Shown here piece after piece: positions 15,602 through 47,845 of a DNA stretch of 50,731 nt; within the stretch, counting starts at the first letter, position 1, and every line of letters begins with the position of its first letter. The notes below the pieces were generated by a model. That model did no database searches, was not told the origin of the DNA, and saw nothing but the letters and a program-made list of their open reading frames with translations. The stretch lies in sequence record PZ445412.1. One strand, written 5' to 3'. This stretch comes from a phage. The position numbers were made by a program, and so were the translations under genes.

Positions 15602-15623
15602 AAATAGCACAAAAGGTTAAAAG
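15602..15623 (+). promoter_or_regulatory. box variant directly upstream of J start
   Basis: AAATAGCACAAAAGGTTAAAAG, 3 nt before ATG, no hairpin. Confidence 0.35.
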
Positions 15624-15625
15624 CT

Positions 15626-18600
15626 ATGATCAAAAATATGATAACTGGCAGTAAGGGCGGTTCTTCAAAGCCTCATACACCTGTTGAAATGGAAGATAAC
15701 CTAATTTCAATTAACAGGATCAGAATTCTTTTAGCTGTTTCTGATGGTGAAGTTGATCCAGACTTTTCATTGAAAGATTTATATTTTGATGACGTTCCGG
15801 TTATGAATCAGGATGGTTCGCTAAACTTTCAGAATGTTAAGGCGGAATTCAGACCAGGGACGCAAACGCAGGATTATATTCAGGGGTTTACTGATACAGC
15901 CAGCGAAATTACAGTTGCTCGCGATCTGACAGCCGCAACTCCTTATATTATTTCTGTTACCAATAAAAACCTTTCTGCGATCCGTATTAAAATTTTAATG
16001 CCTCGCGGGGTTACTCAGGAAGATAACGGAGATCTAACAGGTGTTCGCGTTGAATATGCTGTTGATATGGCTGTTGATGGCGCTGAATATAAAGAGGTTT
16101 TGCATGATGTAATTGAAGGTAAAACAATGAGCGGTTACGACAGAAGCCGCCGAATTGATTTACCTGCTTTCAATGAGCGTGTTTTATTGCGCGTCCGTCG
16201 CCTTACAGATAGCACGTCAGCAAGGGTAACGGATCTGATTAAAATGCAAAGCTATGCGGAAGTTGTAGACGCTAAATTTCGTTACCCACTGACTGGTTTA
16301 GTATATGTTGAGTTTGACAGCGAATTATTCCCTAATGCGTTGCCGAATATCAGCATTAAGAAAAAATGGAAAATCATTAATGTTCCGTCAAATTATGATC
16401 CTATTTCCCGCACTTACTCAGGGTCATGGGATGGAACCTGGAAAAAGGCATGGAGTAATAACCCTGCTTTTGTTCTTTATGATTTGATTACCAATCAGCG
16501 TTACGGACTCGATCAAAGAGAGTTAGGCATCGCGCTTGATAAATGGAGCATTTACGAATGTGCGCAGTATTGCGATCAGATGGTTCCAGACGGTAAAGGC
16601 GGAACAGAGCCGCGCTATCTTTGCGACGTTGTGATCCAGAGCCAGGTAGAGGCGTATCAGCTTGTGCGTGATATTTGTTCAATATTCCGTGGCATGAGCT
16701 TTTGGAATGGTGAAAGCCTTTCAATCGTGATCGATAAGCCTCGCGATGCGTCATACATCTTTACTAATGACAACGTGGTTAACGGTGAATTCACTTACAC
16801 GTTTGCCAGCGAAAAAAGCATGTACACGCAATGCAACGTGACTTTCGACGACGAACAAAACATGTATCAACAGGATGTTGAGGGAGTTTTCGAAACTGAG
16901 GCGGCGTTACGCTTTGGCTATAACAGCACGTCAATTACTGCGATTGGATGCACACGACGCAGCGAAGCCAACCGCCGTGGACGCTGGATTTTAAAAACCA
17001 ACGTCAAGAGCACAACGGTAAACTTTGCTACAGGTCTGGAAGGTATGATCCCAACAGTAGGCGATGTGATTGTTGTATCGGATAACTTCTGGTCAAGCGC
17101 TCTAACGCTGAATCTATCAGGTCGAGTGATGGAGGTTAGCGGGTTGCAGGTGTTCACGCCGTTTAAGGTAGACGCAAGAGCAGGTGATCGCATTCTGGTA
17201 AATAAGCCGGATGGTAAGCCAGTTGGTCGAACCATTGCGCGTGTGAGTGATGACGGTAAAACGCTAACGCTAAACACGACATTTGGTTTTGACGTTCAGC
17301 CGGATACCATTTTTGCAATTGAGCGAACCGATATTGCACAGCAACGATATGTTGTAACCGGAATCACTAAGGGTGACGGTGATGAAGAATTTACCTACAA
17401 CATAACGGCTGTTGAATACGATCCGAACAAATACGATGAAATTGATTATGGCGTAAACATTGATGACCGTCCGACTTCAATCGTGCAGCCTGACATTTTG
17501 CCAGCACCGCAAAACGTCAAGATCGAATCTTATTCGCGAGTTGTCCAGGGCGCGAGCGTGGAAACAATGCATGTTTCATGGGATAAGGTTGAATATGCAA
17601 GCCTTTATGAAATGCAGTGGAGAAAAGACAATGGCAACTGGAACAACACGCCGCGCACAGCCAACAAGGAAACGGAAGTTGAAGGAATTTATGAGGGTAA
17701 CTATCACGTAAGGGTTAGATCTGTTGCAGCGAATGGTTCAGCGTCTGGATGGTCAGCAATTGTAAGCGCCGGATTAACTGGCAAGGTTGGCGAACCGGAA
17801 AGGCCAATTAACCTTACTGCGTCTGACAATGAAGTTTTCGGAATTCGCGTAAAATGGGGTATGCCAGAAGGAAGCGGAGACACGGCATATATTGAGTTGC
17901 ATCAAGCGCCAAACGGTTCTGATGGTCATCCTATTGTTGATGAAGCAACGCTCTTAACGCTGATACCGTTCCCGCAATATGAGTATTGGCATTCAATACT
18001 GCCAGCGGGTCATGTTGTCTGGTACAAGGCAAGGGCAGTTGACAAAATCGGTAACGTTTCTGATTGGACTGATTTTGTGCGCGGCATGGCTTCCGACGAT
18101 ACGAGCATTATCACGGATCATATTAAGGTCGATATTGAAAATTCTGATGGCTATAAGTGGTTGCAGGAAAACGCAATAAAGGCCAATGATAAGATCCACA
18201 GCACAGCGGAATCAGTGATTGAAAACGCATTAGCGAATGATAAAGATGTTCGACGTATGCGAGTTGAAAACGGAAAGCGTAAAGCGGAGTTCTTGCAATC
18301 GCTGAAACTCATTGCAGACGAAACAGAAGCAAGGGTAACGCAGGTCACTCAAATGAGTGTGCAATTTGACGAGAAATTAACGGCTCAAAATAGCGAATTG
18401 AGAGAGGTTATTGCTAACAGCACTGAAACCATTAGCCAAAGGATTGATCAGCTTACAGCTACGTTTGAGAGCGAAATTGATGGTGTTAAGCAGGATATCA
18501 AAGCACAGATAACTGATGTTAACCAGGCAATCACCAATGAATCGGAAGCGCGAGCATCAGCGGATAGGGCGTTATCAACTCAAATTGGTGATACCCAATC

Positions 18601-19402
18601 AGCGGTTAACCAGAAACTTGATTCATGGGTTAACGGTACAAGCGTTGGTGCGATGTACGGAGTTAAGTTGGGGATCAGGTATAACGGGCAGGAATATAGC
18701 GCAGGTATGGCTCTTTCTCTTGTCGCTGATGGTGGCGGAGTTAAATCACAATTCCTGTTTGATGCCGGAAGATTTGCGATCATCAACAATGCTCAAAGCG
18801 GAGCCTTTACATTGCCGTTTGTAGTTGAGAATAACCAGGTGTTTATCAATAGCTTGCTTGTGAAAAACGGCTCTATTGGTAACGCTCAGATAGCTAACTT
18901 CATTAACTCTAACAACTGGCAAAGCGGTGTTGCAGGTTGGGCGATTAACAAGGATGGTTATGCCGAATTCAACCAAGTAACTGTAAGGGGTGGCGTTTAT
19001 GCTTCATACGGATCATTCACTGGCAGCGTTTACGCGCAAGACGGATGGTTTAGGGGTACTGTTTACGCTGAAAAAATTGAGGGTGACGTTGCAAAGGCTG
19101 TTGTTCTTCCGTTTAACGGATCGGTTCACATTCCGGCGGTTAACTATAACAGACACCTTGTGATCCCTTATGTTGGTATTCACGGGTACACATATTCAGG
19201 TGGTACATGGGGCGGCGGTACTGTTTGGGTTGATTCAACATATGGTGGTCGCCTTGCTAACGTTCGGGCAACTGCAATGCATGGCGGATCAAGTGGTTAT
19301 GTTCTGTTGCCAGCAGGTAACGCAACCACGCTTTCATATGGTGGAGATCTAAACCACGCAAACGCAGTACCGATCTTAACAGTTCTGTTATTCAAAGCAT
19401 AA
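15626..19402 (+). CDS. central tail fibre / host specificity protein (lambda J-like)
   Basis: 1258-aa ORF, largest gene, downstream of K/I-like genes; strong terminator downstream. Confidence 0.85.
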   Translation: MIKNMITGSKGGSSKPHTPVEMEDNLISINRIRILLAVSDGEVDPDFSLKDLYFDDVPVMNQDGSLNFQNVKAEFRPGTQTQDYIQGFTDTASEITVARDLTAATPYIISVTNKNLSAIRIKILMPRGVTQEDNGDLTGVRVEYAVDMAVDGAEYKEVLHDVIEGKTMSGYDRSRRIDLPAFNERVLLRVRRLTDSTSARVTDLIKMQSYAEVVDAKFRYPLTGLVYVEFDSELFPNALPNISIKKKWKIINVPSNYDPISRTYSGSWDGTWKKAWSNNPAFVLYDLITNQRYGLDQRELGIALDKWSIYECAQYCDQMVPDGKGGTEPRYLCDVVIQSQVEAYQLVRDICSIFRGMSFWNGESLSIVIDKPRDASYIFTNDNVVNGEFTYTFASEKSMYTQCNVTFDDEQNMYQQDVEGVFETEAALRFGYNSTSITAIGCTRRSEANRRGRWILKTNVKSTTVNFATGLEGMIPTVGDVIVVSDNFWSSALTLNLSGRVMEVSGLQVFTPFKVDARAGDRILVNKPDGKPVGRTIARVSDDGKTLTLNTTFGFDVQPDTIFAIERTDIAQQRYVVTGITKGDGDEEFTYNITAVEYDPNKYDEIDYGVNIDDRPTSIVQPDILPAPQNVKIESYSRVVQGASVETMHVSWDKVEYASLYEMQWRKDNGNWNNTPRTANKETEVEGIYEGNYHVRVRSVAANGSASGWSAIVSAGLTGKVGEPERPINLTASDNEVFGIRVKWGMPEGSGDTAYIELHQAPNGSDGHPIVDEATLLTLIPFPQYEYWHSILPAGHVVWYKARAVDKIGNVSDWTDFVRGMASDDTSIITDHIKVDIENSDGYKWLQENAIKANDKIHSTAESVIENALANDKDVRRMRVENGKRKAEFLQSLKLIADETEARVTQVTQMSVQFDEKLTAQNSELREVIANSTETISQRIDQLTATFESEIDGVKQDIKAQITDVNQAITNESEARASADRALSTQIGDTQSAVNQKLDSWVNGTSVGAMYGVKLGIRYNGQEYSAGMALSLVADGGGVKSQFLFDAGRFAIINNAQSGAFTLPFVVENNQVFINSLLVKNGSIGNAQIANFINSNNWQSGVAGWAINKDGYAEFNQVTVRGGVYASYGSFTGSVYAQDGWFRGTVYAEKIEGDVAKAVVLPFNGSVHIPAVNYNRHLVIPYVGIHGYTYSGGTWGGGTVWVDSTYGGRLANVRATAMHGGSSGYVLLPAGNATTLSYGGDLNHANAVPILTVLLFKA

Positions 19403-19415
19403 AAGGAGTTAAATC

Positions 19416-19450
19416 AATGCCCTGGCTTAACGGTCGGGGCATTTTGTTTT
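19416..19450 (+). terminator. rho-independent terminator after J
   Basis: ATGCCC...GGGGCAT followed by TTTTGTTTTC. Confidence 0.6.
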
Positions 19451-19862
19451 CTTTTGTTCCACGATGTTCACAACCGAATCCGGCGTAAAATTGAAAACGT
19501 CTTGATAACAAAAAGAACAAATTAAATATCTATATAATACATACACTTAGAGTTTAATTATTATTATATATATCTATTTGTATTCTTCTTGTTTCCATTG
19601 TTCTCTATGGTTTGTGGTGGTTGTGTGTTTTGTATTGGTTGATGGTTATATATCACATGGTATGTATTTATATATGGTATGCGGCGTAAATGCGTAAACA
19701 ATGGAACGCAAAAACAACAATTAGTAAAATCATAAACTTACGATGTGATTTTGTTGTCAATGCTAGTTGTAAACGTATGCAAAACAAAAAGAACACTTAA
19801 AGGGTATTGACTACATGCAACAAAGACATATAATGCAGACATACCAACGAGAGGATGACCAA

Positions 19863-20918
19863 ATGAGCGATTTTAAAGTTTACACCTTTGACCAGTTAAC
19901 CAATGATGAATATCACGATCCTAAAGGTTGGGCGGCTGAATACGTTAGCGGTTCAAGCCTGGCAGAAATCTTTGCAACTTGTCCGGCAGCATGGAAATAC
20001 AGACCACGCGAAGAAAGCAAAGCTCTTGTTTTCGGTACGCAGTCACATACCAACTTTCAAAGCAGTGAGTTGTTCGCAAAAGAGTACCGCCGAGCGCCAG
20101 CGCCGGAAGATTACGAAAACTTAATCACAAGCCAAACGGCATTAGCAAGCAAGTTAAAATCTTTTGGCCTGACTGGTACATCTGGGAAAACCTATCCAGA
20201 TCTGATTAAGATGATTGTTGATTGCGGTGAGGATCTTAATGTTCAGTGGCTGATTGAAATGATCGCAGAGAGCCAGGCGCGAGCGGATAAAGTTGAATTG
20301 GTTCCGGCTAAAGATTACGACGCTTGCGTTACCATGCGCCGCGTACTGGAAAGCATACCGGAACACAACGCTTGCATGAATAGCCCAACAGCACAACGCG
20401 AGCTATCAATTTTCGGCACTATCAAAGGCGTGAAAGTCAAAGTAAGGCTTGACCATGTTGATATTTGCAAGGATGTGCTTGCAACAGTGATTTCCGGCTA
20501 TGGTGGTGATGGTAATCCGGTATATGAAACAACGCGATTTGATGAAGCGATTGTGATCACGGATTATAAAACAACGTCAAGCGCTAACCCGTCAGAGTTT
20601 GCAAGGCTGGCATTCGATCATGGCTACTACTTGAAAATGGCATTGCAGCATGACCTATTCAAGAAAGCGTATCCAGAAGAAACGCGCCCCGTAGTAGTCA
20701 GATTGCTGGCGCAGGAAAAGAAAGAGCCTTATTTACCGATCGCATACCGCATGACGGATGAACAATTGAAGATCGGACGGCTTCAATACATGAGTGTGAT
20801 AAACCAGTTTGCAGAATGCCAGGTAAATGACGTTTGGCCTTCATACGCAAACGGAGAGCCGGAAATTGATCTTCAAACACCTGATTGGGTTCGTCGTCAA
20901 TACAAAGGTTTTTTATAA
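19863..20918 (+). CDS. PD-(D/E)XK-family exonuclease (RecE-like recombination nuclease)
   Basis: Motifs RLDHVD and ITDYKTT (D...D/E-x-K); precedes Erf-like and SSB genes; start MSDFKVY at 19863. Confidence 0.5.
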   Translation: MSDFKVYTFDQLTNDEYHDPKGWAAEYVSGSSLAEIFATCPAAWKYRPREESKALVFGTQSHTNFQSSELFAKEYRRAPAPEDYENLITSQTALASKLKSFGLTGTSGKTYPDLIKMIVDCGEDLNVQWLIEMIAESQARADKVELVPAKDYDACVTMRRVLESIPEHNACMNSPTAQRELSIFGTIKGVKVKVRLDHVDICKDVLATVISGYGGDGNPVYETTRFDEAIVITDYKTTSSANPSEFARLAFDHGYYLKMALQHDLFKKAYPEETRPVVVRLLAQEKKEPYLPIAYRMTDEQLKIGRLQYMSVINQFAECQVNDVWPSYANGEPEIDLQTPDWVRRQYKGFL

Positions 20919-20938
20919 ATAGCACTTTTTGCTAAAAC
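20917..20938 (+). promoter_or_regulatory. conserved 22-bp box plus hairpin element
   Basis: AAATAGCACTTTTTGCTAAAAC; hairpin GATGCGTG-gtatacta-CACGCATC at 20949-20972. Confidence 0.6.
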
Positions 20939-20995
20939 TGCCATTCGATGCGTGGTATACTACACGCATCAACCAACGAGAGAGAGGAAATAAAA

Positions 20996-27484: not shown

Positions 27485-27521
27485 AATAAAAAACCTGGCA
27501 CGATGATAAACCATGCCAGGC
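27485..27521 (-). terminator. hairpin plus T-tract between HTH gene and primase (minus strand)
   Basis: CCTGGCATGG...CGTGCCAGG followed by TTTTTTATTT on minus strand. Confidence 0.5.
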
Positions 27522-27529
27522 CGGAATTT

Positions 27530-28138
27530 TTAGCAATCAGTGCTATCGACGGAAATCACAACGCGTTTCTTCTGATTGGCTTCCTTTGCTTTGCGCCGTT
27601 CTTCTTTCGCCTTTTCGCGTTCAGCTTTGCGCCGCGCTTTCTCCTTCTCGCGTTCTTCTGGACTCATAGACCGCAACGGATCGTAAGGCCGCACAAATCC
27701 TCTTGCTTCCGCTTCCTCTTTGGTTACAAATCGCATCAGCTTTCTGTTGCTGCAACGATTCTCTAATGGCTTGCCGTTATTATCAAATTTGATATCTGGA
27801 CGGCAATATGAAGCGCGGAAGCCGTTAAAACCTTTGCGTCGGTAATCTTTCTGGATCAGTTCAGCGCCTTTAGTTGAAATCATGCCGCGCTCTTTCCATC
27901 CCCATACTGTTTTAAGGTTAACGCCAATTTCACGCGCCAGGGCAGCGCAACCGCCGTAAGCGTTGACAACTTCATCAAGCCGCGCTTTTAATCCGGCTCT
28001 TACTTCTTCCTTTAATACAAGATAACCGCTAACAGGTGCGCGACGTTTACGATCTTTACCACGTCTTACGCCGTTGTTACCATTGATTGTTCGTTTGTCG
28101 ATTTCGCCAGTTGAGGCAGCAATTTTGATTTCGCTCAT
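27530..28138 (-). CDS. HTH DNA-binding protein with basic C-terminal tail
   Basis: HTH-like segment CAALAREIGVNLKTVWGWKERG; Lys/Arg/Glu-rich C-terminus; first gene of leftward unit upstream of primase. Confidence 0.4.
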   Translation of the reverse strand: MSEIKIAASTGEIDKRTINGNNGVRRGKDRKRRAPVSGYLVLKEEVRAGLKARLDEVVNAYGGCAALAREIGVNLKTVWGWKERGMISTKGAELIQKDYRRKGFNGFRASYCRPDIKFDNNGKPLENRCSNRKLMRFVTKEEAEARGFVRPYDPLRSMSPEEREKEKARRKAEREKAKEERRKAKEANQKKRVVISVDSTDC

Positions 28139-28148
28139 ATTTTCACCT

Positions 28149-28170
28149 GTAGCACTTTTTGCTAAAAAAC
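28149..28170 (+). promoter_or_regulatory. conserved 22-bp box upstream of helicase
   Basis: GTAGCACTTTTTGCTAAAAAAC followed by TATGATAT and a small hairpin. Confidence 0.5.
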
Positions 28171-28226
28171 TTGATTAAGTTTGTGTATGATATGCCTCAA
28201 ATGGCATTTAGTCAAAAGGATAAAAA

Positions 28227-30202: not shown

Positions 30203-30610
30203 ATGGTTAATGATAAAGGAGATTATCTGGAGTATTACGACAAATCAGATCCAGATACAAGAAAAGAAGAATCTCACCAGGTTGATTCTTACTCATGGCT
30301 TATATACGAATTCCCCATGTGGCTTGTTTGGCACACTAAAAACGAAGGGAAGAAAACCATTGGCACAGCAGTAAAAGATCAGCAAGCAGGTGTGAAAAAG
30401 GGAGTAAGCGACATTCTAATCCTGACTGGTTTTATTGGCTGCAAATATTCATTCATTGCCATTGAGCTTAAAAAAGCCAACAAGAAAGGCACAAAAGTAA
30501 GCAAGGAACAAAAGGAATTCTTACGTCGCGTTAGGGAATGCGGAGGATTTGCCGCCGTATGCTATGGTGTAGAGCAAGTAAAATTGGCTATCGCAGACGC
30601 TACAAAATAG
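30203..30610 (+). CDS. VRR-NUC domain nuclease
   Basis: GVSDILIL...IAIELKK pattern consistent with the VRR-NUC D...E.K core; follows helicase. Confidence 0.5.
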   Translation: MVNDKGDYLEYYDKSDPDTRKEESHQVDSYSWLIYEFPMWLVWHTKNEGKKTIGTAVKDQQAGVKKGVSDILILTGFIGCKYSFIAIELKKANKKGTKVSKEQKEFLRRVRECGGFAAVCYGVEQVKLAIADATK

Positions 30611-30626
30611 CACTTTTTGTTAAAAC
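30605..30626 (+). promoter_or_regulatory. conserved 22-bp box plus hairpin element
   Basis: AAATAGCACTTTTTGTTAAAAC; hairpin GGCGCA-acggaa-TGCGCC; CATAATGCAC; AGAACGAAACGGAG. Confidence 0.6.
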
Positions 30627-30681
30627 AGGCGCAACGGAATGCGCCATAATGCACCCATCAGAACGAAACGGAGAATTAACC

Positions 30682-31701: not shown

Positions 31702-31968
31702 ATGGAAAAGATTGAAACTATTGTTGAAAATGGCGTTGAATATCGACGCGTTGAATTAACTGAACGTGGTTTATGGTTGCTTTATCGCGCTATGGTTTGC
31801 GAAGCTATAGAGAAAGCGAAAGAAACTGAAACAGTAGGATCTGATTTGTGGATGTTCACAGGTGCGCTTGATATGAGCTTTGATGAAACAAAAGAGCTTG
31901 TATTGAGCAAGTGGGAAGAAAAGATAAATCAAGATCTCAAAGAATTTTTAGCAGATCCGAATAAATAG
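31702..31968 (+). CDS. hypothetical acidic protein
   Basis: 88 aa, Glu/Asp-rich; stop codon embedded in box element. Confidence 0.4.
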   Translation: MEKIETIVENGVEYRRVELTERGLWLLYRAMVCEAIEKAKETETVGSDLWMFTGALDMSFDETKELVLSKWEEKINQDLKEFLADPNK

Positions 31969-31985
31969 CACTTTTTGTTAAAAAT
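31963..31985 (+). promoter_or_regulatory. conserved 22-bp box plus hairpin element
   Basis: Box then hairpin TGCCCC-gcgaaagt-GGGGCA, ATAATCA, TCAACGAAAC. Confidence 0.6.
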
Positions 31986-32038
31986 GCCCCGCGAAAGTGG
32001 GGCATAATCATTTCAACGAAACACGATAGGGCTTTAAG

Positions 32039-35093: not shown

Positions 35094-35152
35094 GGTTATT
35101 CCCCTTTGTTCGTTTCGTTTCGATGAAACAAATATACCCGATGCGAGATCGG

Positions 35153-35176
35153 GTTTTTTGACAAAAAGTGCTATTC
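35153..35176 (-). promoter_or_regulatory. conserved box plus hairpin element (minus orientation)
   Basis: Reverse complement GAATAGCACTTTTTGTCAAAAAAC; hairpin CCCGAT-ctcgc-ATCGGG; TATATT; TCGAAACGAAACGAAC. Confidence 0.6.
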
Positions 35177-37267: not shown

Positions 37268-37318
37268 CTAAAAATCTCCTTCTTGTTGCCGCTAATTATA
37301 ACGGCAACATTCTACAGC

Positions 37319-37340
37319 CTTTTAGCAATTCGTGCTATTT
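37319..37340 (-). promoter_or_regulatory. conserved box (GAATTG type) plus hairpin element
   Basis: Reverse complement AAATAGCACGAATTGCTAAAAG; hairpin TGTTGCCG-ttataatta-CGGCAACA with TATAAT in the loop. Confidence 0.6.
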
Positions 37341-37942: not shown

Positions 37943-37997
37943 TTGATTTATCTCCTTTTGTTTCGACGAGTGCATTATGCCGGATTCTAGATCCGGC

Positions 37998-38019
37998 GTT
38001 TTAACAAAAAGTGCTATTT
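37998..38019 (-). promoter_or_regulatory. conserved 22-bp box plus hairpin element
   Basis: Reverse complement AAATAGCACTTTTTGTTAAAAC; hairpin GCCGGAT-ctaga-ATCCGGC; CATAATGCAC; TCGAAAC. Confidence 0.6.
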
Positions 38020-39265: not shown

Positions 39266-39319
39266 TTTTGATTCTCCATTTTGTTTGTGTGAAAGTATGA
39301 TACCAATCAGAGCGATATC

Positions 39320-39343
39320 GTTTTTAGCAATTCGTGCTATTTA
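39320..39343 (-). promoter_or_regulatory. conserved box (GAATTG type)
   Basis: Reverse complement AAATAGCACGAATTGCTAAAAAC; followed by TGGTATCATACT. Confidence 0.5.
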
Positions 39344-39990: not shown

Positions 39991-40044
39991 TTTTAGATTC
40001 TCCGGTTCGTTTCGATGAATGTATTATGCCAAAACAAACCGGAT

Positions 40045-40067
40045 CGCTTTTAACAAAAAGTGCTATT
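40045..40067 (-). promoter_or_regulatory. conserved 22-bp box element
   Basis: Box then GGCATAATACA and TCATCGAAACGAACCGGAG leader. Confidence 0.55.
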
Positions 40068-40261
40068 TAGTCAGATTCCATTACGATGACCGGATCAAGA
40101 CGTTCAAGCACGACTTTGAAATCTGCGTAAAAAGTCGGGCGGCGTTTTGTCAATTCCTCATAGGTATCAGTTGCCAGGCAAGCGTGATCACCTTCATAGC
40201 ACACAACGCGTTTACCGTTGGCGCGGCTGATTGCAACCACGCGGTAAGTGTTCTTGCTCAT
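40067..40261 (-). CDS. hypothetical protein
   Basis: 64-aa ORF, coupled to neighbours. Confidence 0.4.
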   Translation of the reverse strand: MSKNTYRVVAISRANGKRVVCYEGDHACLATDTYEELTKRRPTFYADFKVVLERLDPVIVMESD

Positions 40262-40491: not shown

Positions 40492-40713
40492 TTATTCATC
40501 CTCAACAGTTTCAAACACGGTATTAAATGCCAGAAGTTTAAATTTCTTGCCAGGCTCAACAACCTGAATATTCCAGGTAATTCCGCCGTGATATGCGACC
40601 ATATCATCAATATCGACGGTGATTTGTGCGCCCTTCTTGAATAAACCTTTCTCATGAGTAGCGTCACGTTCAGTAACTACAGTTTCGAATTGCGTTTGTT
40701 GTTCAAAGTTCAT
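40492..40713 (-). CDS. hypothetical protein
   Basis: 73 aa; preceded by box 40769-40790, hairpin and CAACCAATCAGGAG leader. Confidence 0.45.
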   Translation of the reverse strand: MNFEQQTQFETVVTERDATHEKGLFKKGAQITVDIDDMVAYHGGITWNIQVVEPGKKFKLLAFNTVFETVEDE

Positions 40714-40768
40714 CGTTGATTCTCCTGATTGGTTGATGCGTGTATTATGCCGGAATTAGATCCGGCAC

Positions 40769-40790
40769 GTTTAACAAAAAGTGCTATTTC
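40769..40790 (-). promoter_or_regulatory. conserved 22-bp box plus hairpin element
   Basis: Box; hairpin GTGCCGGA-tctaat-TCCGGCAC; ATAATACACGCATCAACCAATCAGGAG. Confidence 0.6.
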
Positions 40791-41573: not shown

Positions 41574-41628
41574 TTTGTAATCCTCAATTCGTTTCGATGA
41601 AGTAATCATAGCAATTCGTGACTGATTG

Positions 41629-41650
41629 GTTTTAACAAAAAGTGCTATTC
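41629..41650 (-). promoter_or_regulatory. conserved 22-bp box, first element of leftward operon
   Basis: Box followed by CCAATCAG, CACGAATTGCTA and TCATCGAAACGAATTGAGG. Confidence 0.55.
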
Positions 41651-41656
41651 ATGCGA

Positions 41657-41684
41657 TAGACCGATTGGTCTAGACCGTTTGGTC
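41657..41684. promoter_or_regulatory. two abutting 14-bp palindromes (operator-like)
   Basis: AGACCGATTGGTCT and AGACCGTTTGGTCT just upstream of the first leftward box. Confidence 0.55.
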
Positions 41685-41721
41685 TAATGAACACATCGTT
41701 TTCTGTATCGAACGGATTCAC

Positions 41722-41815
41722 GATCACGTTATGCGATCACAATATGATCATGTTGATGATTGATGTGTGAGTTGATTTGATTTTATTTGATGGGATTTGA
41801 TTAGATTTGAGTAGC
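41722..41815. repeat. GATC cluster plus 10-bp-phased ATTTGA iterons (candidate origin or protein-binding array)
   Basis: Three GATC within 30 bp; ATTTGA at 41775, 41785, 41795, 41805 with exact 10-bp spacing. Confidence 0.6.
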
Positions 41816-42248
41816 TAGTGAGCAGAAATAATCACACCTTGCCGATCAGAGAAAACTTTTCCCGCAAAACATCACTCCAGGCTAGCTCTTGTCTCAATCT
41901 GTTTTCTGCTGTCTCAATTCGCACATTCCGCAAAAAAGCGAAACGGTTCACAAACAGAAAGAACAAATAAATCACCTATATAATAATAATAAAATCAACT
42001 AGTTAGTTATATATATCTATTTATGGTTATATATCTGTCTTAGTTGTTCTGTCTATATAGGCATACCCTGGTATATTTCAATTTATATATTGATATTGGT
42101 ATCTATGGGTATATATATCTATATATGCTCGATTTCCGGCGCAAACTGGTGAACAGGCGAAAAAGACAAGCGTTTTCATTGCTTTGCGTTGAAATTTGTC
42201 TCAAATCGCATATTGAAATGTATTAAGAACCAAAAGAACTTGACACGT

Positions 42249-42275
42249 TATAGAACAAGTTATAACATTCACGGC
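42249..42275 (+). promoter_or_regulatory. sigma70-like promoter candidate for rightward early genes
   Basis: TTGACA, 15-nt spacer, TATAAC; followed by ACCAATCAGGAGG leader. Confidence 0.35.
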
Positions 42276-42304
42276 GTACCAAAAACCAATCAGGAGGAAA
42301 AACA

Positions 42305-42760
42305 ATGGAAGAATTCGACTACATCCCAATGAAAGATTTCTGCAACGGCCTACGCGAAAAGGCAAAGAGCATTGCAGAAGGTGAACCACTAGTGATCCCG
42401 TTGGCTATGCTGGTTCAAAAACTGCATCCAGAAGATGCGAGAAAGGTTACAGCCAGCTACATAAGAACCATCCTTGTGCGCACACCTGAAATCAAAGAGA
42501 AAGGAAGCGTGAGCATCAAGAAGTGCAATTGCCCGGATCGCGGTGAATACCTTGAAGTGACGCTCAACGAAAACAAAAAGCGTCGAGTGATCACAAGTGA
42601 CGACCTTCCAGCAATCAAGGAGGCGGCTGTAAGTAGCGCTTTCGAGAAGTTTATGCACATTCAGCCTGACGTTACAGATCTTGAAGGTGATCAGTTAGTT
42701 GGTGCTACTGTAGCGTTGCGCCGCATGAAAAATCTGATTAAGTCAATGATTAAGGGGTGA
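42305..42760 (+). CDS. hypothetical protein, first gene of rightward early block
   Basis: 151 aa; RBS CAGGAGGA; TTGACA promoter-like hexamer upstream at 42249. Confidence 0.5.
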   Translation: MEEFDYIPMKDFCNGLREKAKSIAEGEPLVIPLAMLVQKLHPEDARKVTASYIRTILVRTPEIKEKGSVSIKKCNCPDRGEYLEVTLNENKKRRVITSDDLPAIKEAAVSSAFEKFMHIQPDVTDLEGDQLVGATVALRRMKNLIKSMIKG

Positions 42761-43047: not shown

Positions 43048-43051
43048 TGTG

Positions 43052-43153: not shown

Positions 43154-43171
43154 CGCTATGGACGGCCTAAA

Positions 43172-43279
43172 ATGAAAGCATTCGCCTTTGTCGCTGCAAT
43201 GTGGTGTGTTGTTATTGATAGTCCTGGCGTGGCGCTAGTTGTGTTGGGTCTGATTTTGTTGGGGGTGTTTGATGAATAA
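43172..43279 (+). CDS. tiny single-TM peptide (35 aa)
   Basis: MKAFAFVAAMWCVVIDSPGVALVVLGLILLGVFDE; coupled to neighbours. Confidence 0.35.
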   Translation: MKAFAFVAAMWCVVIDSPGVALVVLGLILLGVFDE

Positions 43280-43385
43280 GAAACTTTTAGATCATGCCGT
43301 GGTGTTCTTTATCGCTGCTGCTGGATTTTCGCTGTTGTCAATTGCTTTTTCAATCCTTGCTTTTGCCGTGTCAATGCTGAAATGA
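43272..43385 (+). CDS. tiny single-TM peptide (37 aa)
   Basis: MNKKLLDHAVVFFIAAAGFSLLSIAFSILAFAVSMLK; ATG overlaps upstream stop. Confidence 0.35.
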   Translation: MNKKLLDHAVVFFIAAAGFSLLSIAFSILAFAVSMLK

Positions 43386-43405
43386 CGGATTACATCCTGA
43401 TTGGT

Positions 43406-43427
43406 AAATAGCACTTTTTGTTAAAAC
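43406..43427 (+). promoter_or_regulatory. conserved 22-bp box plus hairpin element
   Basis: Box; hairpin GGGGT...ACCCC enclosing TTGACATAATT; TCGAAACGAAACGAGG. Confidence 0.6.
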
Positions 43428-43482
43428 TCAATTGGGGTGGTTTGACATAATTACCCCATCGAAACGAAACGAGGAAAATAAA

Positions 43483-43740
43483 ATGTTTGAACTGAAACGC
43501 GTAACTGTTGAGATCCTGAATGATGGCTCTTACGATGGAATGAAACACTTAACCTTCCCGATCCGCATTGAGAATTGCATTGATTATGGTATTGAAGTTG
43601 GAATGGTTGACGTTCCGCTTGATGCACTTATCGCGGCTGGCTATGACAAAGAGAAAGGCCAATGTGCTGATATACCGGATAGCTATGAAAGCGACACGCA
43701 TTTCCCGTTCACATATGGCGAATGCCGGATTGTTGATTGA
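43483..43740 (+). CDS. hypothetical acidic protein
   Basis: Start MFELKRV at 43483 after box, hairpin and TCGAAACGAAACGAGG leader. Confidence 0.45.
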   Translation: MFELKRVTVEILNDGSYDGMKHLTFPIRIENCIDYGIEVGMVDVPLDALIAAGYDKEKGQCADIPDSYESDTHFPFTYGECRIVD

Positions 43741-43812
43741 GGTTATAAAATGAGCAGTTAGCACAATGAGCACGTAATGCAATTCTACCGCCATAGAATA
43801 AAGAAAATTCTC

Positions 43813-43833
43813 AATAGCACGAATTGCTAAAAC
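43813..43833 (+). promoter_or_regulatory. conserved box (GAATTG type)
   Basis: AATAGCACGAATTGCTAAAAC; hairpin GGTAT-agtaatccc-ATACC with TATAGT. Confidence 0.55.
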
Positions 43834-43889
43834 AGAATCTTGGGCTTGCGGTATAGTAATCCCATACCAAACAAATAGAGGATCACAAA

Positions 43890-44204
43890 ATGGAATTAGC
43901 ACGTAACGCGATTTATGGTTTACACCTCAAAGGCGGCAAAGGTTCAACTTATGCGCACCTGTTTCATGTTAACGATCGCGGCCAGGTTGATATTGCAATG
44001 TATGTTGACCAACTGGTTAAAGGTTGTGAGTCCGACAAGTTCAGACCGGACCTGATTGAATACGATCACACATACAGTCATGACCACTGGTTAGATGGTT
44101 ATAAGTTTACAATGCTGGATACCCATGTTATTGACACAGGCAAGTTAACTAATCGAGACTATAAGCGCATGGCTCGAAAGGTAGTTAAACTTAAAGCGCA
44201 ATAG
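43890..44204 (+). CDS. hypothetical protein
   Basis: 104 aa; preceded by GAATTG-type box 43813-43833. Confidence 0.45.
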   Translation: MELARNAIYGLHLKGGKGSTYAHLFHVNDRGQVDIAMYVDQLVKGCESDKFRPDLIEYDHTYSHDHWLDGYKFTMLDTHVIDTGKLTNRDYKRMARKVVKLKAQ

Positions 44205-44219
44205 CACAAAATGTTAAGC
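44200..44219 (+). promoter_or_regulatory. box variant plus hairpin with extended -10
   Basis: AATAGCACAAAATGTTAAGC; hairpin GGTCAT...ATGACC enclosing TGGTATAAT; GCATCAACCAACCAAAGGAG. Confidence 0.55.
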
Positions 44220-44276
44220 GGTCATGTGTCCTGATTGGTATAATGACCGCATCAACCAACCAAAGGAGAAGTAAAA

Positions 44277-44384
44277 ATGTCTAAAGAGTCTATCAAGCAA
44301 TTTCTGAAATACGGTTCTATGATTGTGCTCGCTACCGTTGTGCTGGCTGGCATCGCATATAGCATTATTGAGTTTGCGGGGTAA
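44277..44384 (+). CDS. tiny single-TM peptide (35 aa)
   Basis: MSKESIKQFLKYGSMIVLATVVLAGIAYSIIEFAG; preceded by box variant, hairpin with TGGTATAAT, RBS AAGGAG. Confidence 0.4.
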   Translation: MSKESIKQFLKYGSMIVLATVVLAGIAYSIIEFAG

Positions 44385-44387
44385 TTG

Positions 44388-44930
44388 ATGTTTACGATCA
44401 ACTTATGGGGAAGGGATTATGTTAATCCCTATGTTGTGACAAAACAGCGTTTCGTTATTTTCGACCTGGACGGCACATTGTCAAATGGTGAGCACCGCTT
44501 GCACCTGTTGCCAACGGTTGATTTGCACCTTACTGAAAGCTGGAGTGAGTTTAATCGCGCCGCAAAGGATGATTCACCATTCAGCAATAACATTGCCGTG
44601 TGCAATGCCATGTTTGATGCCGGATACCTGGTTATCATCCTAACAGGTCGAAGTGATGAAGTTGAATCGGAAACACGAGCATGGTTGGCTGAAAACGGCG
44701 TTTCTTTCGATTGGCTGATTATGCGCCGCGCCAGCGATAACCGGAAAGATACCGTAATCAAAGAGGAAGTTTTACGTACTATCGGACTTGATCGCATTGT
44801 CGCATGTTGGGATGACTCACCAAACGTTATTGCACACCTGCGCGGCCTGGGCTTGACGGTTTACCAGGTCATTGACTACGGAGAGCAGTTGCACGATCAC
44901 TTAAAGTCTCACGGAGTGGAGAAGTTATGA
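44388..44930 (+). CDS. HAD-superfamily phosphatase (polynucleotide 3'-phosphatase-like)
   Basis: HAD motif I FDLDGTLS near N-terminus. Confidence 0.5.
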   Translation: MFTINLWGRDYVNPYVVTKQRFVIFDLDGTLSNGEHRLHLLPTVDLHLTESWSEFNRAAKDDSPFSNNIAVCNAMFDAGYLVIILTGRSDEVESETRAWLAENGVSFDWLIMRRASDNRKDTVIKEEVLRTIGLDRIVACWDDSPNVIAHLRGLGLTVYQVIDYGEQLHDHLKSHGVEKL

Positions 44931-45103
44931 AACTAAAATGCATCGGTGAATATCCAGGTTTTACGGTTGGCAACATGTACAATGCAACAATCGGAATGGA
45001 TCACACATTTGGTTATGAATGCTATGTTGTCATTGATGATGATGGTGATTCACGTAGCATTGATTTCGAAACAGAGGATTTTATAGAGGATCGCTATCTG
45101 TGA
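44927..45103 (+). CDS. hypothetical small acidic protein (58 aa)
   Basis: ATG overlaps upstream stop (ATGA); acidic C-terminus. Confidence 0.35.
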   Translation: MKLKCIGEYPGFTVGNMYNATIGMDHTFGYECYVVIDDDGDSRSIDFETEDFIEDRYL

Positions 45104-45200
45104 TTGAAAACTATGATCCAATGGCGCTTGCTTGGGGGATTGGTGCTTTTATCGTGGCGGTTGTGATTTTCTTATGGGATATCAACAGGAGAGACAAATA

Positions 45201-45380
45201 ATGTATACATACGTTTTACTGATGGTTGTCATGGGCTATCAATCAGGCGGCGCTTTGAGTCATGAGTTTACCGGAATTGAAGCGTGTGAGAATGCAGCAC
45301 AGCAGATGAAAGAGAAGTTGGGGCGCAATCGTGATGTTGTTTATTCATGCGTACCGAAAAACTCAAGTCTCGTTAAATAG
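45201..45380 (+). CDS. hypothetical small protein
   Basis: Start MYTYVLL at 45201 with RBS GGAGAGA; stop embedded in box 45375-45396; a 26-aa hydrophobic peptide ORF (45121-45201) precedes it. Confidence 0.4.
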   Translation: MYTYVLLMVVMGYQSGGALSHEFTGIEACENAAQQMKEKLGRNRDVVYSCVPKNSSLVK

Positions 45381-45427
45381 CACTTTTTGCTAAAACTTGC
45401 TAAGGCACATTTGATAAAGTGTGCCTT
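45375..45427 (+). promoter_or_regulatory. conserved box plus class-B hairpin
   Basis: Box; hairpin AAGGCACA-tttgataaag-TGTGCCTT. Confidence 0.6.
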
Positions 45428-45453
45428 GTCGAGACAAGCAAGGAGAATGACGA

Positions 45454-45708
45454 ATGAAATATTACAGGTGCGGCAGTCTTATTTATCGTGACGATGGGGT
45501 TAATATTTTTGTTGCCTATTATGACAAGATGGAATTTTTTGAATCCATTTACACAAGGCGCGTTTTTAATTCAATGGTTGATGCCGGATTTATGAAAGAG
45601 TGCGAGCCACCAAAAGCGAAGCCGTTTTATAAAAATGTTGATTTCTGGCATAACGCCGTATTGATCACAATTCTGTTAATTCTTTCCGTGGGGTTTATTT
45701 TCTTATGA
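45454..45708 (+). CDS. hypothetical membrane protein (C-terminal TM anchor)
   Basis: RBS AAGGAGAA; C-terminal hydrophobic segment AVLITILLILSVGFIFL. Confidence 0.45.
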   Translation: MKYYRCGSLIYRDDGVNIFVAYYDKMEFFESIYTRRVFNSMVDAGFMKECEPPKAKPFYKNVDFWHNAVLITILLILSVGFIFL

Positions 45709-45887
45709 TGCTTGATAACCGTAAAGAGACTGAAAAAACGATCAGCTATCTGCGTGAGCTTGCCGATAGACTGGAAAACGGCGAAGTGGGATTAAATGAT
45801 ATTACGATTGAAGCGCGTAATATTTGTTGGAACGTTGAAGAAGAAACATTAACACTACAAACTGTTAAGGCGGTAAACAATGGCTAA
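45705..45887 (+). CDS. hypothetical protein
   Basis: 60-aa ORF coupled between membrane protein and kinase. Confidence 0.4.
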   Translation: MMLDNRKETEKTISYLRELADRLENGEVGLNDITIEARNICWNVEEETLTLQTVKAVNNG

Positions 45888-46455
45888 AATTATCATCCTA
45901 AATGCGCCTCCTGGTGCTGGTAAAGATACGATCGGCAAGATGATTTCAGTTTTCGCAGACGGTAAGCAATGCCGCATCATTAGCTTTAAAGAGCCAATGT
46001 TTGACATAGCGTTAGCTATCCTGGGTAAAGAGAACTATCAGCGCTTCATGTTGGCTTATGATGACAGAGAGCAGAAAGAAAGACCGCAAACATTCCTGAT
46101 GGGTATGTCGCCGCGAGAGTTCATGATCTGGATTAGTGAGGATGTGATCAAGCCTAAATTCGGAAGGGATTATTTCGGCGTAAGGTTTAACCAAAAGGTA
46201 AAAGAGTGCGATGCTCCTGTTGTTTGCACTGACGGCGGTTTTCCAGATGAAATTATCGCGCTAATCAATGCTGGTAATGAGGTGAAGTTATGCCGATTGC
46301 ATAGGGACGGATTCACGTTTGCAGGTGATAGCCGCAACTACATTCGAATCAATCCATACTACCAGAAAAACGGATATAGTGAGCACGATTACTTATTAAC
46401 CAATGAAAAGCCGATGATTACAGTTAGCGAAATCATTCGCGATCACCTTAAATAG
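45880..46455 (+). CDS. P-loop nucleotide kinase (dNMP kinase-like)
   Basis: N-terminal P-loop NAPPGAGKDT; stop embedded in box 46450-46471. Confidence 0.55.
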   Translation: MAKIIILNAPPGAGKDTIGKMISVFADGKQCRIISFKEPMFDIALAILGKENYQRFMLAYDDREQKERPQTFLMGMSPREFMIWISEDVIKPKFGRDYFGVRFNQKVKECDAPVVCTDGGFPDEIIALINAGNEVKLCRLHRDGFTFAGDSRNYIRINPYYQKNGYSEHDYLLTNEKPMITVSEIIRDHLK

Positions 46456-46501
46456 CACGAATTGCTAAAACTTGCGCAAGGCCATTTGATATAGTGGCCT
46501 T
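46450..46501 (+). promoter_or_regulatory. conserved box (GAATTG type) plus class-B hairpin
   Basis: Box; hairpin AAGGCCA-tttgatatag-TGGCCTT. Confidence 0.6.
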
Positions 46502-46535
46502 ATTCAAGAGAAGCAACCAATCAGAGGAATAACCG

Positions 46536-46733
46536 ATGAAAATTAAATGCACCAAATCAAACACCATGAATCTGACAGTTGGCGCGATTTACCATATGGA
46601 AGAAGGTGTAAACGGATTTAGCCCAACTGTTACGCATGAATACGGCGGTCACTTCTTCTTAAACGGTAAAGACGGATTATCTGTAAATGTTGGCTCTTTC
46701 GTTCTGGCAGAATTTGAGGTCGTGGAGGAATAA
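46536..46733 (+). CDS. hypothetical protein
   Basis: 65 aa; after box, hairpin and CAACCAATCAGAGG leader. Confidence 0.45.
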   Translation: MKIKCTKSNTMNLTVGAIYHMEEGVNGFSPTVTHEYGGHFFLNGKDGLSVNVGSFVLAEFEVVEE

Positions 46734-46735
46734 AA

Positions 46736-46900
46736 ATGTTTTGGATTCATTCGCCGCAAGGATTGCTTTATGTGCCTGGCGTTGAGTTAGAAGAGCGGCG
46801 CGACGGCGACACGGTGAACATCATAACGAAGGATTCAAAAGGCCATACACTAAAAACGTATGTTTTTAACACTCCGGTTAAGGTTGAAAAAGATGATTAA
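46736..46900 (+). CDS. hypothetical small protein (54 aa)
   Basis: ATG 3 nt after upstream stop; not in the 60-aa track. Confidence 0.35.
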   Translation: MFWIHSPQGLLYVPGVELEERRDGDTVNIITKDSKGHTLKTYVFNTPVKVEKDD

Positions 46901-47036
46901 GATGTGGTTAATATTTATCCTGCTTGTCATAATTGGCAATATTTTGATTGTCGCTAATTGTGTTCCTTTTGGTGGCGCTGTTTTGGGTATGGCTGGTTAT
47001 TACGTTGGGTATAAAGGGAATAAATTAGATGAATAG
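46893..47036 (+). CDS. tiny membrane peptide (47 aa)
   Basis: MIKMWLIFILLVIIGNILIVANCVPFGGAVLGMAGYYVGYKGNKLDE; overlaps neighbours. Confidence 0.35.
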   Translation: MIKMWLIFILLVIIGNILIVANCVPFGGAVLGMAGYYVGYKGNKLDE

Positions 47037-47274
47037 AAAAATGCTGGTACGCGCATTCGCAAAGATTGCTAAAAGATGGGGTGATTCAGCTAAAACACCT
47101 TACACGTTTGGCATGTACGGTTACAAGAATGCTCGCGCATGGGGTCGCATCATTACAGATAACTATGAATCCGAAATGCTGGAGGCTTACGCAAGCTGGA
47201 TTGATACACCGCTAAATGAATGGGGCCAGGCTGAATATGATTGTTTTGCTGATGAAGAAATTTCTTGCTGGTAA
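47029..47274 (+). CDS. hypothetical protein
   Basis: 81-aa ORF. Confidence 0.4.
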   Translation: MNRKMLVRAFAKIAKRWGDSAKTPYTFGMYGYKNARAWGRIITDNYESEMLEAYASWIDTPLNEWGQAEYDCFADEEISCW

Positions 47275-47286
47275 GGAGACTAAACG

Positions 47287-47799
47287 ATGAAAGCTAAAAA
47301 TGATTTTTATAACTACCTGACGAAAGGTCGTGACTATACCGTTTTGAATAGCATTGATACTCTTTACCTGGTTGTTGCTGATAATGGCGTTAGAGTTTGG
47401 CTTGATAAAACGCTTTTCGAAAGCGAGCACCTAAGCAATGCAAAGCGAATAGCAGATGAAGCAAGCGCATTAGCAGAGCGTGAACGAATTCGCGATATAG
47501 TAGCGGAGCAGGTTAGAAATTCTTGTTTGCCTGGTGGCGATATCTTCAAATCAATGCGCGGTGAAATGACGGTTGGAATTAAAGATCGCGTAATTGCAAA
47601 ATCAGTTGATTCTGTAATTGAGAATGCGAAATTCAATGCAATGATTGAATCGGAGCCTAATGAATACATCAAAGTGCTGGAACAATTGCGCGAAGTATTG
47701 CGAGTGCCGGATGGTGAAAACATTGTGACTCATGCAAAGGTTGTAAGAACGTTGGCTGATGCTTTGCTTGACGTTTATCCAGGAATGAAGCGCAAATAG
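47287..47799 (+). CDS. hypothetical protein
   Basis: 170 aa, RBS AAGGAGA; stop embedded in box 47794-47815. Confidence 0.45.
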   Translation: MKAKNDFYNYLTKGRDYTVLNSIDTLYLVVADNGVRVWLDKTLFESEHLSNAKRIADEASALAERERIRDIVAEQVRNSCLPGGDIFKSMRGEMTVGIKDRVIAKSVDSVIENAKFNAMIESEPNEYIKVLEQLREVLRVPDGENIVTHAKVVRTLADALLDVYPGMKRK

Positions 47800-47845
47800 C
47801 ACTTTTTGTTAAAACTTCCGCGAGGACATTTGTTAAAGTGTCCTC
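47794..47845 (+). promoter_or_regulatory. conserved box plus class-B hairpin
   Basis: Box; hairpin GAGGACA-tttgttaaag-TGTCCTC. Confidence 0.6.

Follow-up and report, generated by a model that had tools for sequence, protein, structure and literature searches.

The phage DNA analysed here, a stretch of 50,731 nucleotides from sequence record PZ445412.1 (the window, whose coordinates are used unless another genome is named), is 100% identical to Escherichia phage DanielBernoulli (Bas08, MZ501059.1), a member of the Drexlerviridae, Tempevirinae, Tlsvirus. The record is rotated, and an MZ501059.1 coordinate equals the window coordinate plus 536. From the J-like tail-tip gene onwards, the window carries a family of short conserved boxes that precede genes for recombination, replication, DNA methylation and many small proteins. 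As developed below, we propose, with a probability of about 60%, that these boxes are class II marbox promoters, probably read by the host activator Rob, MarA or SoxS, and that they lie in cassettes resembling the promoter-early stem-loop (PeSL) cassettes of T4-type phages, with a stem-loop that would serve as an attenuator.

The pattern AAATAGCAC-N6-YTAAAAC, with at most 3 mismatches allowed, matched the window 17 times, compared with 1.84 ± 1.41 times in shuffled sequences, so the recurrent family noticed in a first-pass annotation of this DNA is real. Two degenerate copies, at 28146(+) and 44199(+), align with the family after TAGCAC is set in register. The total is 19 boxes, all of them oriented like the next gene, as had been claimed, plus one antisense copy at 5697(-) in the head-gene region. 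The 18 copies listed at first pass belong to the family, but the copy at 27527(-) had been missed and several coordinates were 1-3 nt off. Nor is every copy intergenic, as had been stated: the boxes at 27527(-) and 39321(-) lie in the coding 3' ends of the upstream genes and encode their final six codons.

The stop codon of the upstream gene is the TAG of the box in 10 of the 19 copies, which is not clearly the "most" of the earlier description; in two others it is a TAA at box positions 17-19, and in two more a TAA overlapping positions 1-2, giving 14/19 copies with a stop in or at the box. Two of the three reading frames through the box contain stop codons, so that its use as an upstream stop is largely automatic. 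The distance from box start to start codon is 73-86 nt; it had been given as 60-80 bp after the box. The exception is the copy at 15602, where the ATG follows 24 nt after the box start. Upstream of the tail-tip gene, no gene of the structural block (1-15.5 kb) is preceded by a co-oriented box; the sole box 5' of a structural gene is the atypical one at 15602, before the tail-tip gene, and it lacks a -10 element.

The repeat family as a bare observation is already known, because it was published in 2024 for phage TLS, and the suggestion that the element might be uncharacterised does not hold. In the re-annotation of TLS by German, Kropinski, Misra et al., the passages on the repeats describe 18 intergenic 21-nt direct repeats with the consensus aaATAGCACnnnTTGnTAAAA, co-oriented with transcription, about 76 nt 5' of start codons and divided into subclasses A, T and G; similar repeats are stated for T1, Rtp and Rogue1 (PMC11447400). 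The Bas08 boxes are the same element, at orthologous positions in this Tlsvirus. The same passages report only three sigma70-like intergenic promoters in the whole TLS genome, suggest that the repeats are stoperators, enhancer sites or UP elements, and pose their function as an open question (PMC11447400).

A sigma70-type -10 at fixed distance from the box

In 17 of the 19 copies, a hexamer of the form c/tATAaT lies exactly 18 nt past the box end; in the copy at 20917 the distance is 17 nt, and the copy at 15602 has none. The fixed distance had been recognised at first pass, but was given there as 21-22 bp; the 18 nt from the box end correspond to 22 nt from TTGYTA. A complete module consists, in order, of the box, 18 nt, a conserved G at -14 (often TG), the hexamer, a C-rich discriminator, CATCGAAACGAAAC, a Shine-Dalgarno sequence and the ATG. 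T1 (Tunavirinae) and Rtp (Braunvirinae) have the same module architecture, also with boxes co-oriented with the genes. These data support the earlier idea of promoter modules with a fixed-distance -10, a leader and a ribosome-binding site.

Conservation was assessed in 385 unique modules harvested from about 120 IMG/VR loci of T1-like contigs. A-11 and T-7 are both present at the 18-nt spacing in 319/385 modules (83%), and at least five of six matches to TATAAT occur at offset 18 in 245/385, whereas any other single offset gives at most 11. The G at -14 was found in 312 modules (81%) and TG at -15/-14 in 166 (43%). Information content within the hexamer is highest at positions 2 and 6 (A-11 and T-7), which is the recognition signature of the sigma70 -10 element. 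In the box, the G/C-containing positions (GCAC and TG) show near-2-bit conservation across three subfamilies.

A -35 hexamer was sought at a 17-nt spacer and none was recognisable (mean match to TTGACA, 1.5/6), and a scan for canonical sigma70 promoters missed all the box modules, in agreement with the first-pass view that these are not textbook -35/-10 promoters. Considering that a -10 with G-14 and a conserved box occur without a -35, the promoters would therefore be of the extended -10 type, with the box replacing the -35. With the hexamer set at -12 to -7, the box occupies -52 to -31, the centre of its 15-bp core lies at about -40 and GCAC falls at -47 to -44, all of which depend on the inferred start; the 18-bp distance from marbox to -10 is independent of the start site. 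A conserved CA at the expected +1 is suggestive only. The boxes are very probably promoter elements. This part of the interpretation would survive even if the extended -10 were activator-independent or the box were read by a phage protein, in which case the central claim would fail.

Other identities of the box were rejected. If TTGYTA were a -35, a spacer of 22 nt would result, and no sequence is conserved at 17 nt downstream. The resemblance to an UP element, which the A/T pattern had suggested at first pass, does not hold, as the box at -52 to -31 overlaps the -35 region, has invariant G/C positions (GCAC, TG) and is not followed by a -35. A sigma54 promoter (TGGCAC-N5-TTGC, with GG-N10-GC spacing at -24/-12) does not fit either: in the box, AG and GC are separated by N8 (TAGCAC-N3-TTGC), the first G is absent, and the -10 that comes next is of the sigma70 type.

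The box matches the marbox consensus and the geometry of micF

MarA, SoxS and Rob are monomers of the AraC/XylS family, each with a pair of helix-turn-helix (HTH) motifs. The consensus of the marbox has been given as gcannwwntgnnaaa (PMC12052159) and as GCAHWWWWTGYYAAA (PMC6900184). The window matches the former perfectly at 20 sites, where 2.07 would be expected, and boxes make up 16 of these. The latter is matched with at most one mismatch by 19/19 boxes and the antisense copy, 13 of these matches being perfect. The part of the box that fits is the core GCAC-TTTT-TG-YT-AAA, and the variable box positions (10-12 and 16) are those that are degenerate or unspecified in the consensus (10 = H, 11-12 = W, 16 = Y; n and w in the first form). 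The first-pass impression of a factor-binding site is thus supported, although the marbox fit was not noticed there.

In class II promoters, by definition, a forward marbox overlaps the -35 region, clustered near -41 within the range -36 to -55 (PMC12052159, PMC10268841, PMC6900184). Mapped class II promoters of MarA, SoxS and RamA have a canonical -10 and no recognisable -35, with an average of 1.9 matches (PMC10268841). The phage modules share the consensus, the forward orientation, the overlap with the -35 region and the sigma70 -10 without a -35. In the cryo-electron microscopy structure of the Rob-RNA polymerase-micF complex, Rob makes contacts to -47G and -45A in the A-box, GCAC, while the B-box overlaps the -35 and sigma70 region 4 is occluded by Rob (PMC9178005). 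The phage GCAC at -47 to -44 lies in the register of these contacts.

As a control, a matrix built from the phage boxes only was scanned against E. coli regions. The top hit at micF was the known robbox TGACAGCACTGAATGTCAAAAC, followed by 18 nt, TAGAAT, 7 nt and the micF +1, i.e., with the same distance between box and hexamer as in the phage. In the marC-marR intergenic region, the top hit was the known backward marbox ATGCCACGTTTTGCTAAATC, which lies at position -73 (PMC12052159 S2), and at fumC it was GCACGAAAGACCAAA, which is the site at -39 in the same source. A matrix scan of the host had been proposed at first pass; in these three of the regions scanned, known marboxes were the top hits.

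Several points weigh against a marbox reading. The matrix gave no convincing site in the sodA region, chose another site at inaA than PMC12052159 S2 lists, and at nfo ranked a forward hit followed by 18 nt and TATCAT only third, with a negative score. Because the results for sodA, nfo and inaA are poor or ambiguous, only the micF, mar and fumC controls are used as support. E. coli contains 17,730 sites within two mismatches of the degenerate marbox consensus (PMC12052159); a match alone is thus weak evidence, and the case rests on perfect matches together with fixed geometry. Compared with the host consensus, the phage box is also tighter: the ATA that precedes GCAC and the TT that precedes G hardly vary, and this additional constraint could point to a different reader. 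In unstressed cells there is little MarA or SoxS, and Rob is considered to be mostly sequestered, whereas T1-like phages multiply rapidly in plain broth. With the extended -10, the promoters could do without an activator. The phage HTH protein gp33 co-occurs with the box across the Drexlerviridae. Finally, our literature search found neither binding, reporter or transcript 5'-end data for T1-like phages nor transcriptome or transcription start site data for the Drexlerviridae.

Modules along the genome

For each module, the genes named here are those that it would drive. The module at 20917-20961(+), with the box AAATAGCACTTTTTGCTAAAAC, a 17-nt spacer and TGg-TATACT, precedes gp24, an Erf-like recombinase and SSB, and a hairpin at 20947-20970 brackets its -10. 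At 27503-27548(-), the box CGATAGCACTGATTGCTAAAAA forms the last codons and the TAA stop of the HTH gene gp33, and TATCAT follows after 18 nt, before the primase gene; a strong, terminator-like hairpin with a T-run spans this -10. The module of the helicase gene at 28146-28191(+) has a degenerate 5' end (CCTGTAGCAC...) and a perfect marbox core, GCACTTTTTGCTAAA, followed after 18 nt by TATGAT. The canonical sigma70 promoter of gp33 (28215-28187, minus) overlaps it in divergent orientation, and the two promoters stand back-to-back. The only other strong canonical sigma70 promoters in the non-structural region are those of exoVIII at 19807-19834(+) and of gp65 at 42240-42268(+); the promoters of exoVIII, gp33 and gp65 correspond to P51, P57 and P01, the three listed for TLS.

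At 30605-30650(+), a consensus box, whose TAG is the stop of the VRR-NUC gene, is followed by an 18-nt spacer with a hairpin (30628-30645) and by CATAAT, upstream of gp36 and Dam. The arrangement at 31963-32008(+) is alike, with TAG as the gp38 stop, a spacer hairpin and CATAAT, and gp39-41 follow. On the minus strand, the module at 35131-35176(-) of gp45 has the box GAATAGCACTTTTTGTCAAAAA, with the B-box CAAA as in micF, a spacer hairpin and TATATT. The second helicase gene, gp48, has a G-class box (GAA in the middle) at 37295-37340(-), with TATAAT after 18 nt in a hairpin loop. A consensus box at 37974-38019(-), the TAG of which is the Dcm stop, has a spacer hairpin and CATAAT and serves gp50-49; the G-class box at 39297-39342(-) forms the last codons and TAA stop of gp55, is followed by TGg-TATCAT and serves gp54-52 and Dcm. 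For gp57-55 there is a consensus box at 40023-40068(-), with 18 nt and TGg-CATAAT.

The module at 40744-40789(-), with a spacer hairpin and CATAAT, precedes gp60 to gp58. The product of gp60 (40492-40713, minus) matched Pfam PF25180, "Phage antiviral trigger protein Gp54", with E = 1e-30, and may be a trigger of a host defence system. The module at 41605-41650(-) (18 nt, TATGAT) is the first promoter of the leftward small-gene operon, upstream of gp64-61, and stands at the edge of a 650-bp non-coding gap (41650-42305) between divergent early operons. This gap contains tandem 14-bp palindromes (TAGACCGATTGGTC twice) directly 5' of the box at 41629, as well as further short tandem repeats and TATATATCTAT repeats rich in AT, and ends in the canonical sigma70 promoter of gp65, TTGACA-17-TAACAT. 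It could be an origin, a pac site or a regulatory region.

Rightward modules resume at 43406-43451(+), where a consensus box is followed after 18 nt by TGa-CATAAT within a hairpin of the form GGGGT...ACCCC, before gp69. The G-class box at 43812-43857(+), with 18 nt and TATAGT, precedes gp70, and the degenerate A-class box CAATAGCACAAAATGTTAAGCG at 44199-44244(+), in which TAG is the gp70 stop, is followed after 18 nt by TGg-TATAAT and precedes gp71 and the polynucleotide kinase gene. The last three modules have an 18-nt spacer and a -10 in a hairpin loop: a consensus box with TGa-TAAAGT at 45375-45420(+) for gp76-78, a G-class box with TGa-TATAGT at 46450-46495(+) for gp79-83, and a consensus box with TGt-TAAAGT at 47794-47839(+) for gp84-86.

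Two copies lack a good -10. The atypical A-class box AAATAGCACAAAAGGTTAAAAG at 15602-15623(+) lies directly 5' of the J-like tail-tip gene (ATG 15626); at 18 nt there is only a poor -10 (TGa-TAACTG), which falls within the gene, and part of the box doubles as the ribosome-binding site region. Its position is conserved in T1 (25019), Rtp (23311) and TLS (there listed as DR8). Between head genes, the antisense orphan ATATAGCATTTTTTGTTAAACG at 5673-5718(-) combines a perfect marbox core with a weak -10 (TGt-TAGCAC), and it is directed into the upstream late gene. This copy is conserved in TLS (DR7) and in T1, where the counterpart at 15067(-) is followed by TGt-TATACA at 18 nt. This box is possibly an antisense promoter within the late region.

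Stem-loops between box and start codon

Folding of the 48 nt after the box gave a mean of -11.2 kcal/mol, compared with -7.1 kcal/mol in shuffles, and folds at or below -10 kcal/mol were found for 61% of modules but only 17% of shuffles. The support for these large hairpins is this enrichment over shuffles, the orthologous modules being too alike for informative covariation. The stem-loop spans the -10 in 59% of modules (typically GGGGTA...TACCCC) and lies wholly in the spacer, abutting the hexamer, in 19%. The arm sequences differ among modules, which argues against a common protein site, and the inferred start falls within the 3' arm or beyond it, so the hairpin would form only in read-through RNA. 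Several hairpins directly after boxes are annotated as rho-independent terminators in the T1 record; among the window copies, a proper T-run follows the hairpin in one, 27527(-).

PeSL cassettes of the T4-type phages RB49 and phi1 are mobile and recombine, and their stem-loops attenuate transcription experimentally (Arbiol et al. 2010, PMC2839356). Terminator activity, promoter activity and mini-circle formation of these cassettes have also been demonstrated (PMC2839356). From this precedent and the position of the stem-loops, we infer that the phage stem-loop acts as an attenuator or insulator.

The cassette occurs in unrelated phages

The box was present in 1136 phage records, the hosts of which are almost all Enterobacterales. 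About 20 box-bearing records labelled "Campylobacter phage" (e.g., A131 and C4; 47-50 kb) are T1-like genomes that also carry gp33, and are probably mis-assigned or contaminant Drexlerviridae. The full cassette was found in the T4-like Klebsiella phage Miro (Straboviridae, Slopekvirus; KT001919.1, 57541-57624), consisting of the box, an 18-nt spacer, TATATT and the CATCGAAACGAAAC leader, and a complete cassette is also present in IMG/VR contigs of 174-177 kb. BLAST revealed 3-4 copies per Slopekvirus genome. Box matches in other unrelated contigs, which serve as a negative control, have no -10.

In Miro, a gene adjoining the cassette has no homologue in the T1-like set, and the neighbouring gene Miro96 has a 64%-identical homologue in one T1-like contig. 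The cassette stands beside different genes in unrelated Slopekviruses, consistent with mobility, and the comparison indicates that cassettes have been exchanged horizontally between phage families. Since the cassette appears to be portable to a phage whose transcription programme is different, a host reader is favoured.

Alternative readers and functions of the box

The alternative that survives best is a phage-encoded reader, either gp33 (the T1 gp23/Rtp52 family) or an unrecognised small protein, which would act as a class II-type activator of middle promoters once made from a canonical sigma70 promoter. When 58 phage proteins that are small or hypothetical were concatenated and scanned against Pfam, HTH matches were limited to gp33 (YdaS/Cro-like) and a weak HTH at the gp41 N-terminus. 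No AraC-type HTH was found among these proteins, and a phage-encoded MarA-like protein was rejected on this basis, a very divergent analogue being beyond the reach of the scan. The PHROG annotation of gp33 is transcriptional regulator. Its gene, flanked by two boxes, is among the few with a canonical sigma70 promoter (TTGACT-17-TATCAT, 28215-28187; P57 of TLS), homologues of gp33 occur in 831 records of Drexlerviridae size, and the box holds an imperfect palindrome, TAGCA-N5-TGCTA. However, T at position 16 disrupts the TAGCA/TGYTA palindrome in 41% of modules, with no compensation in the variant copies, and this asymmetric conservation fits a monomeric two-HTH reader and suits a Cro-like dimer poorly. 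If gp33 were the reader, the perfect match to the host marbox consensus and the micF geometry would be a coincidence, and small genes of the host-takeover type would be forced to wait for gp33 synthesis. Moreover, 30 homologues sampled evenly down the ranking of gp33 matches all came from phages of 43-53 kb, whereas the cassette is also found in T4-like Slopekviruses; on this evidence, gp33 stays a rival reader within the Drexlerviridae and probably does not account for the Slopekvirus copies. Overall, we regard a phage-encoded reader as unlikely.

Less probable still are factor-independent extended -10 promoters, with the box as a curved, A/T-rich, UP-like element and/or a homology patch for cassette shuffling. 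The G-14 in 81% and TG in 43% of modules and the A/T tracts within the box agree with such promoters. Conserved promoter cassettes have a precedent as recombination linkers in PeSLs (PMC2839356), and the transfer of the cassette into T4-like phages would fit a homology patch. However, the near-2-bit conservation of GCAC and TG in three subfamilies exceeds the needs of UP elements or homology patches, and a distance to the -10 held strictly at 18 bp implies that RNA polymerase is contacted stereospecifically. The UP consensus of Estrem et al. from 1998 is reportedly an A/T-rich tract at about -59 to -38, preceding a -35 hexamer, which is not the position of the box.

It is very unlikely that the boxes are negative elements or decoys, i.e., stoperator-like repressor roadblocks, as the TLS passages suggest, or high-affinity marboxes that draw MarA, SoxS and Rob off host stress genes while the phage genome replicates. 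They resemble the stoperators described for mycobacteriophage L5 in being orientation-biased intergenic repeats, about 20 consensus marboxes per genome in hundreds of genome copies would form an effective sink, and the copies at 15602 and 5697(-) have no good -10. However, the phage is virulent, no repressor was detected in the Pfam scan of the 58 proteins, the fixed 18-nt distance to a sigma70-type -10 in 83% of modules would be unnecessary for a roadblock or decoy, and a forward orientation over the -35 is the activating geometry. An RNA hairpin UAGCA-N5-UGYUA acting as a processing or stability signal in read-through transcripts is disfavoured and was rejected: the C/T alternation at position 16 would retain G-C or G-U pairing, but the marbox consensus already has Y there, the stem is A/U-rich and no longer than 5 bp, conserved positions reach past it, variant copies break pairs, and the absence of covariation (zero compensatory double changes in 385 modules) speaks against such a hairpin.

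A proposed model for activation by host marbox regulators

In the class II marbox reading, the 20-bp core ATAGCAC-NNN-TTG-YTAAAAC would be a forward marbox/robbox in place of the -35, bound by a monomeric two-HTH activator of the MarA/SoxS/Rob family, with RamA as a possible reader in Klebsiella hosts. Rob is constitutively abundant and is the likeliest default reader. One HTH would enter GCAC (-47 to -44) and the other TAAA (-36 to -33), and the activator would contact the C-terminal domain of the RNA polymerase alpha subunit and displace or contact sigma70 region 4. RNA polymerase would use the extended -10 (G-14, often TG, and a TATAAT-like hexamer 18 bp from the box) and initiate at the A within the conserved CATCG, so that the leader would be A-rich and 20-25 nt long and would contain the Shine-Dalgarno sequence. 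About 18 such promoters would drive all early and middle (non-structural) gene blocks, and the GC-rich stem-loop in the spacer or around the -10 would attenuate or terminate transcription arriving from upstream, as in PeSL cassettes.

A broader claim, which we hold only tentatively and at somewhat less than even odds, is that the whole Drexlerviridae family (T1, TLS, Rtp and the Klebsiella Webervirus therapy phages) ties nearly all of its early and middle transcription to host MarA, SoxS, Rob or RamA, so that phage expression would read out the stress state of the host, and that the cassette is a mobile unit already present in T4-like phages. MarA, SoxS, Rob and RamA drive multidrug resistance and respond to bile, salicylate and oxidative stress. 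If the claim is true, constitutive mar, ram or sox resistance mutants should be better hosts and rob/marA/soxS-deficient strains poorer ones, and phage productivity would be linked to drug resistance, as the same regulators are up-regulated in multidrug-resistant isolates, with a bearing on phage-antibiotic synergy and evolutionary trade-offs. On confirmation, Rob, MarA, SoxS or RamA would count as a host factor of a family of phages in wide therapeutic use, above all against Klebsiella. Dependence on MarA, SoxS or Rob would also make the modules compact, strong promoter parts inducible by salicylate, paraquat or bile.

Comparison with known systems

With respect to the TLS repeats, the fixed -10 at 18 nt, the marbox identity and the hairpin classes are additions of this study, absent from the passages on the repeats in that paper (PMC11447400). 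A literature search of limited coverage found no paper connecting marboxes with phage promoters. The marbox-promoter reading gives a testable answer to the question explicitly posed by the TLS authors, amenable to standard experiments, since class II marbox promoters would explain both the function of the repeats and the finding of only three sigma70-like promoters in TLS.

In T4 middle promoters, which depend on the MotA box and sigma appropriation, the -35 is likewise replaced by an activator box with a TGCT core, next to a good -10 used by the host sigma70 RNA polymerase. However, the MotA box is centred at about -30, 11-13 bp from the -10, whereas TTGYTA in the phage modules is 22 bp from it, and no MotA or AsiA homologues were found in the Pfam scan of the 58 proteins.

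Host class II promoters such as micF and fumC share with the phage modules an asymmetric forward marbox that overlaps and replaces the -35, GCAC at -47 to -44 and a sigma70 -10 without a -35; micF has the identical 18-bp distance to the -10. The phage modules differ in standing in a virulent phage genome at about 18-25 copies per 50 kb, in being all near-perfect to the consensus with extra invariant positions while host sites are degenerate, and in the coupling of the box to a stem-loop and a conserved leader.

PeSL cassettes are also intergenic, start at the upstream stop codon in an A/T-rich stretch and end in a Shine-Dalgarno sequence and ATG. Both they and the phage modules combine a promoter with a stem-loop rich in GC, often GGGG...CCCC, which lies either over the -10 or between it and the upstream element, and both are linked to small ORFan genes and show signs of horizontal movement. 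PeSLs carry a normal -35 hexamer and an UP-like tract, whereas the phage modules have a marbox and no -35, and the activities of PeSLs were established by experiment, whereas those of the Bas08 modules are predicted. If the marbox reading is correct, the modules would extend the PeSL concept of mobile promoters to activator-dependent promoters.

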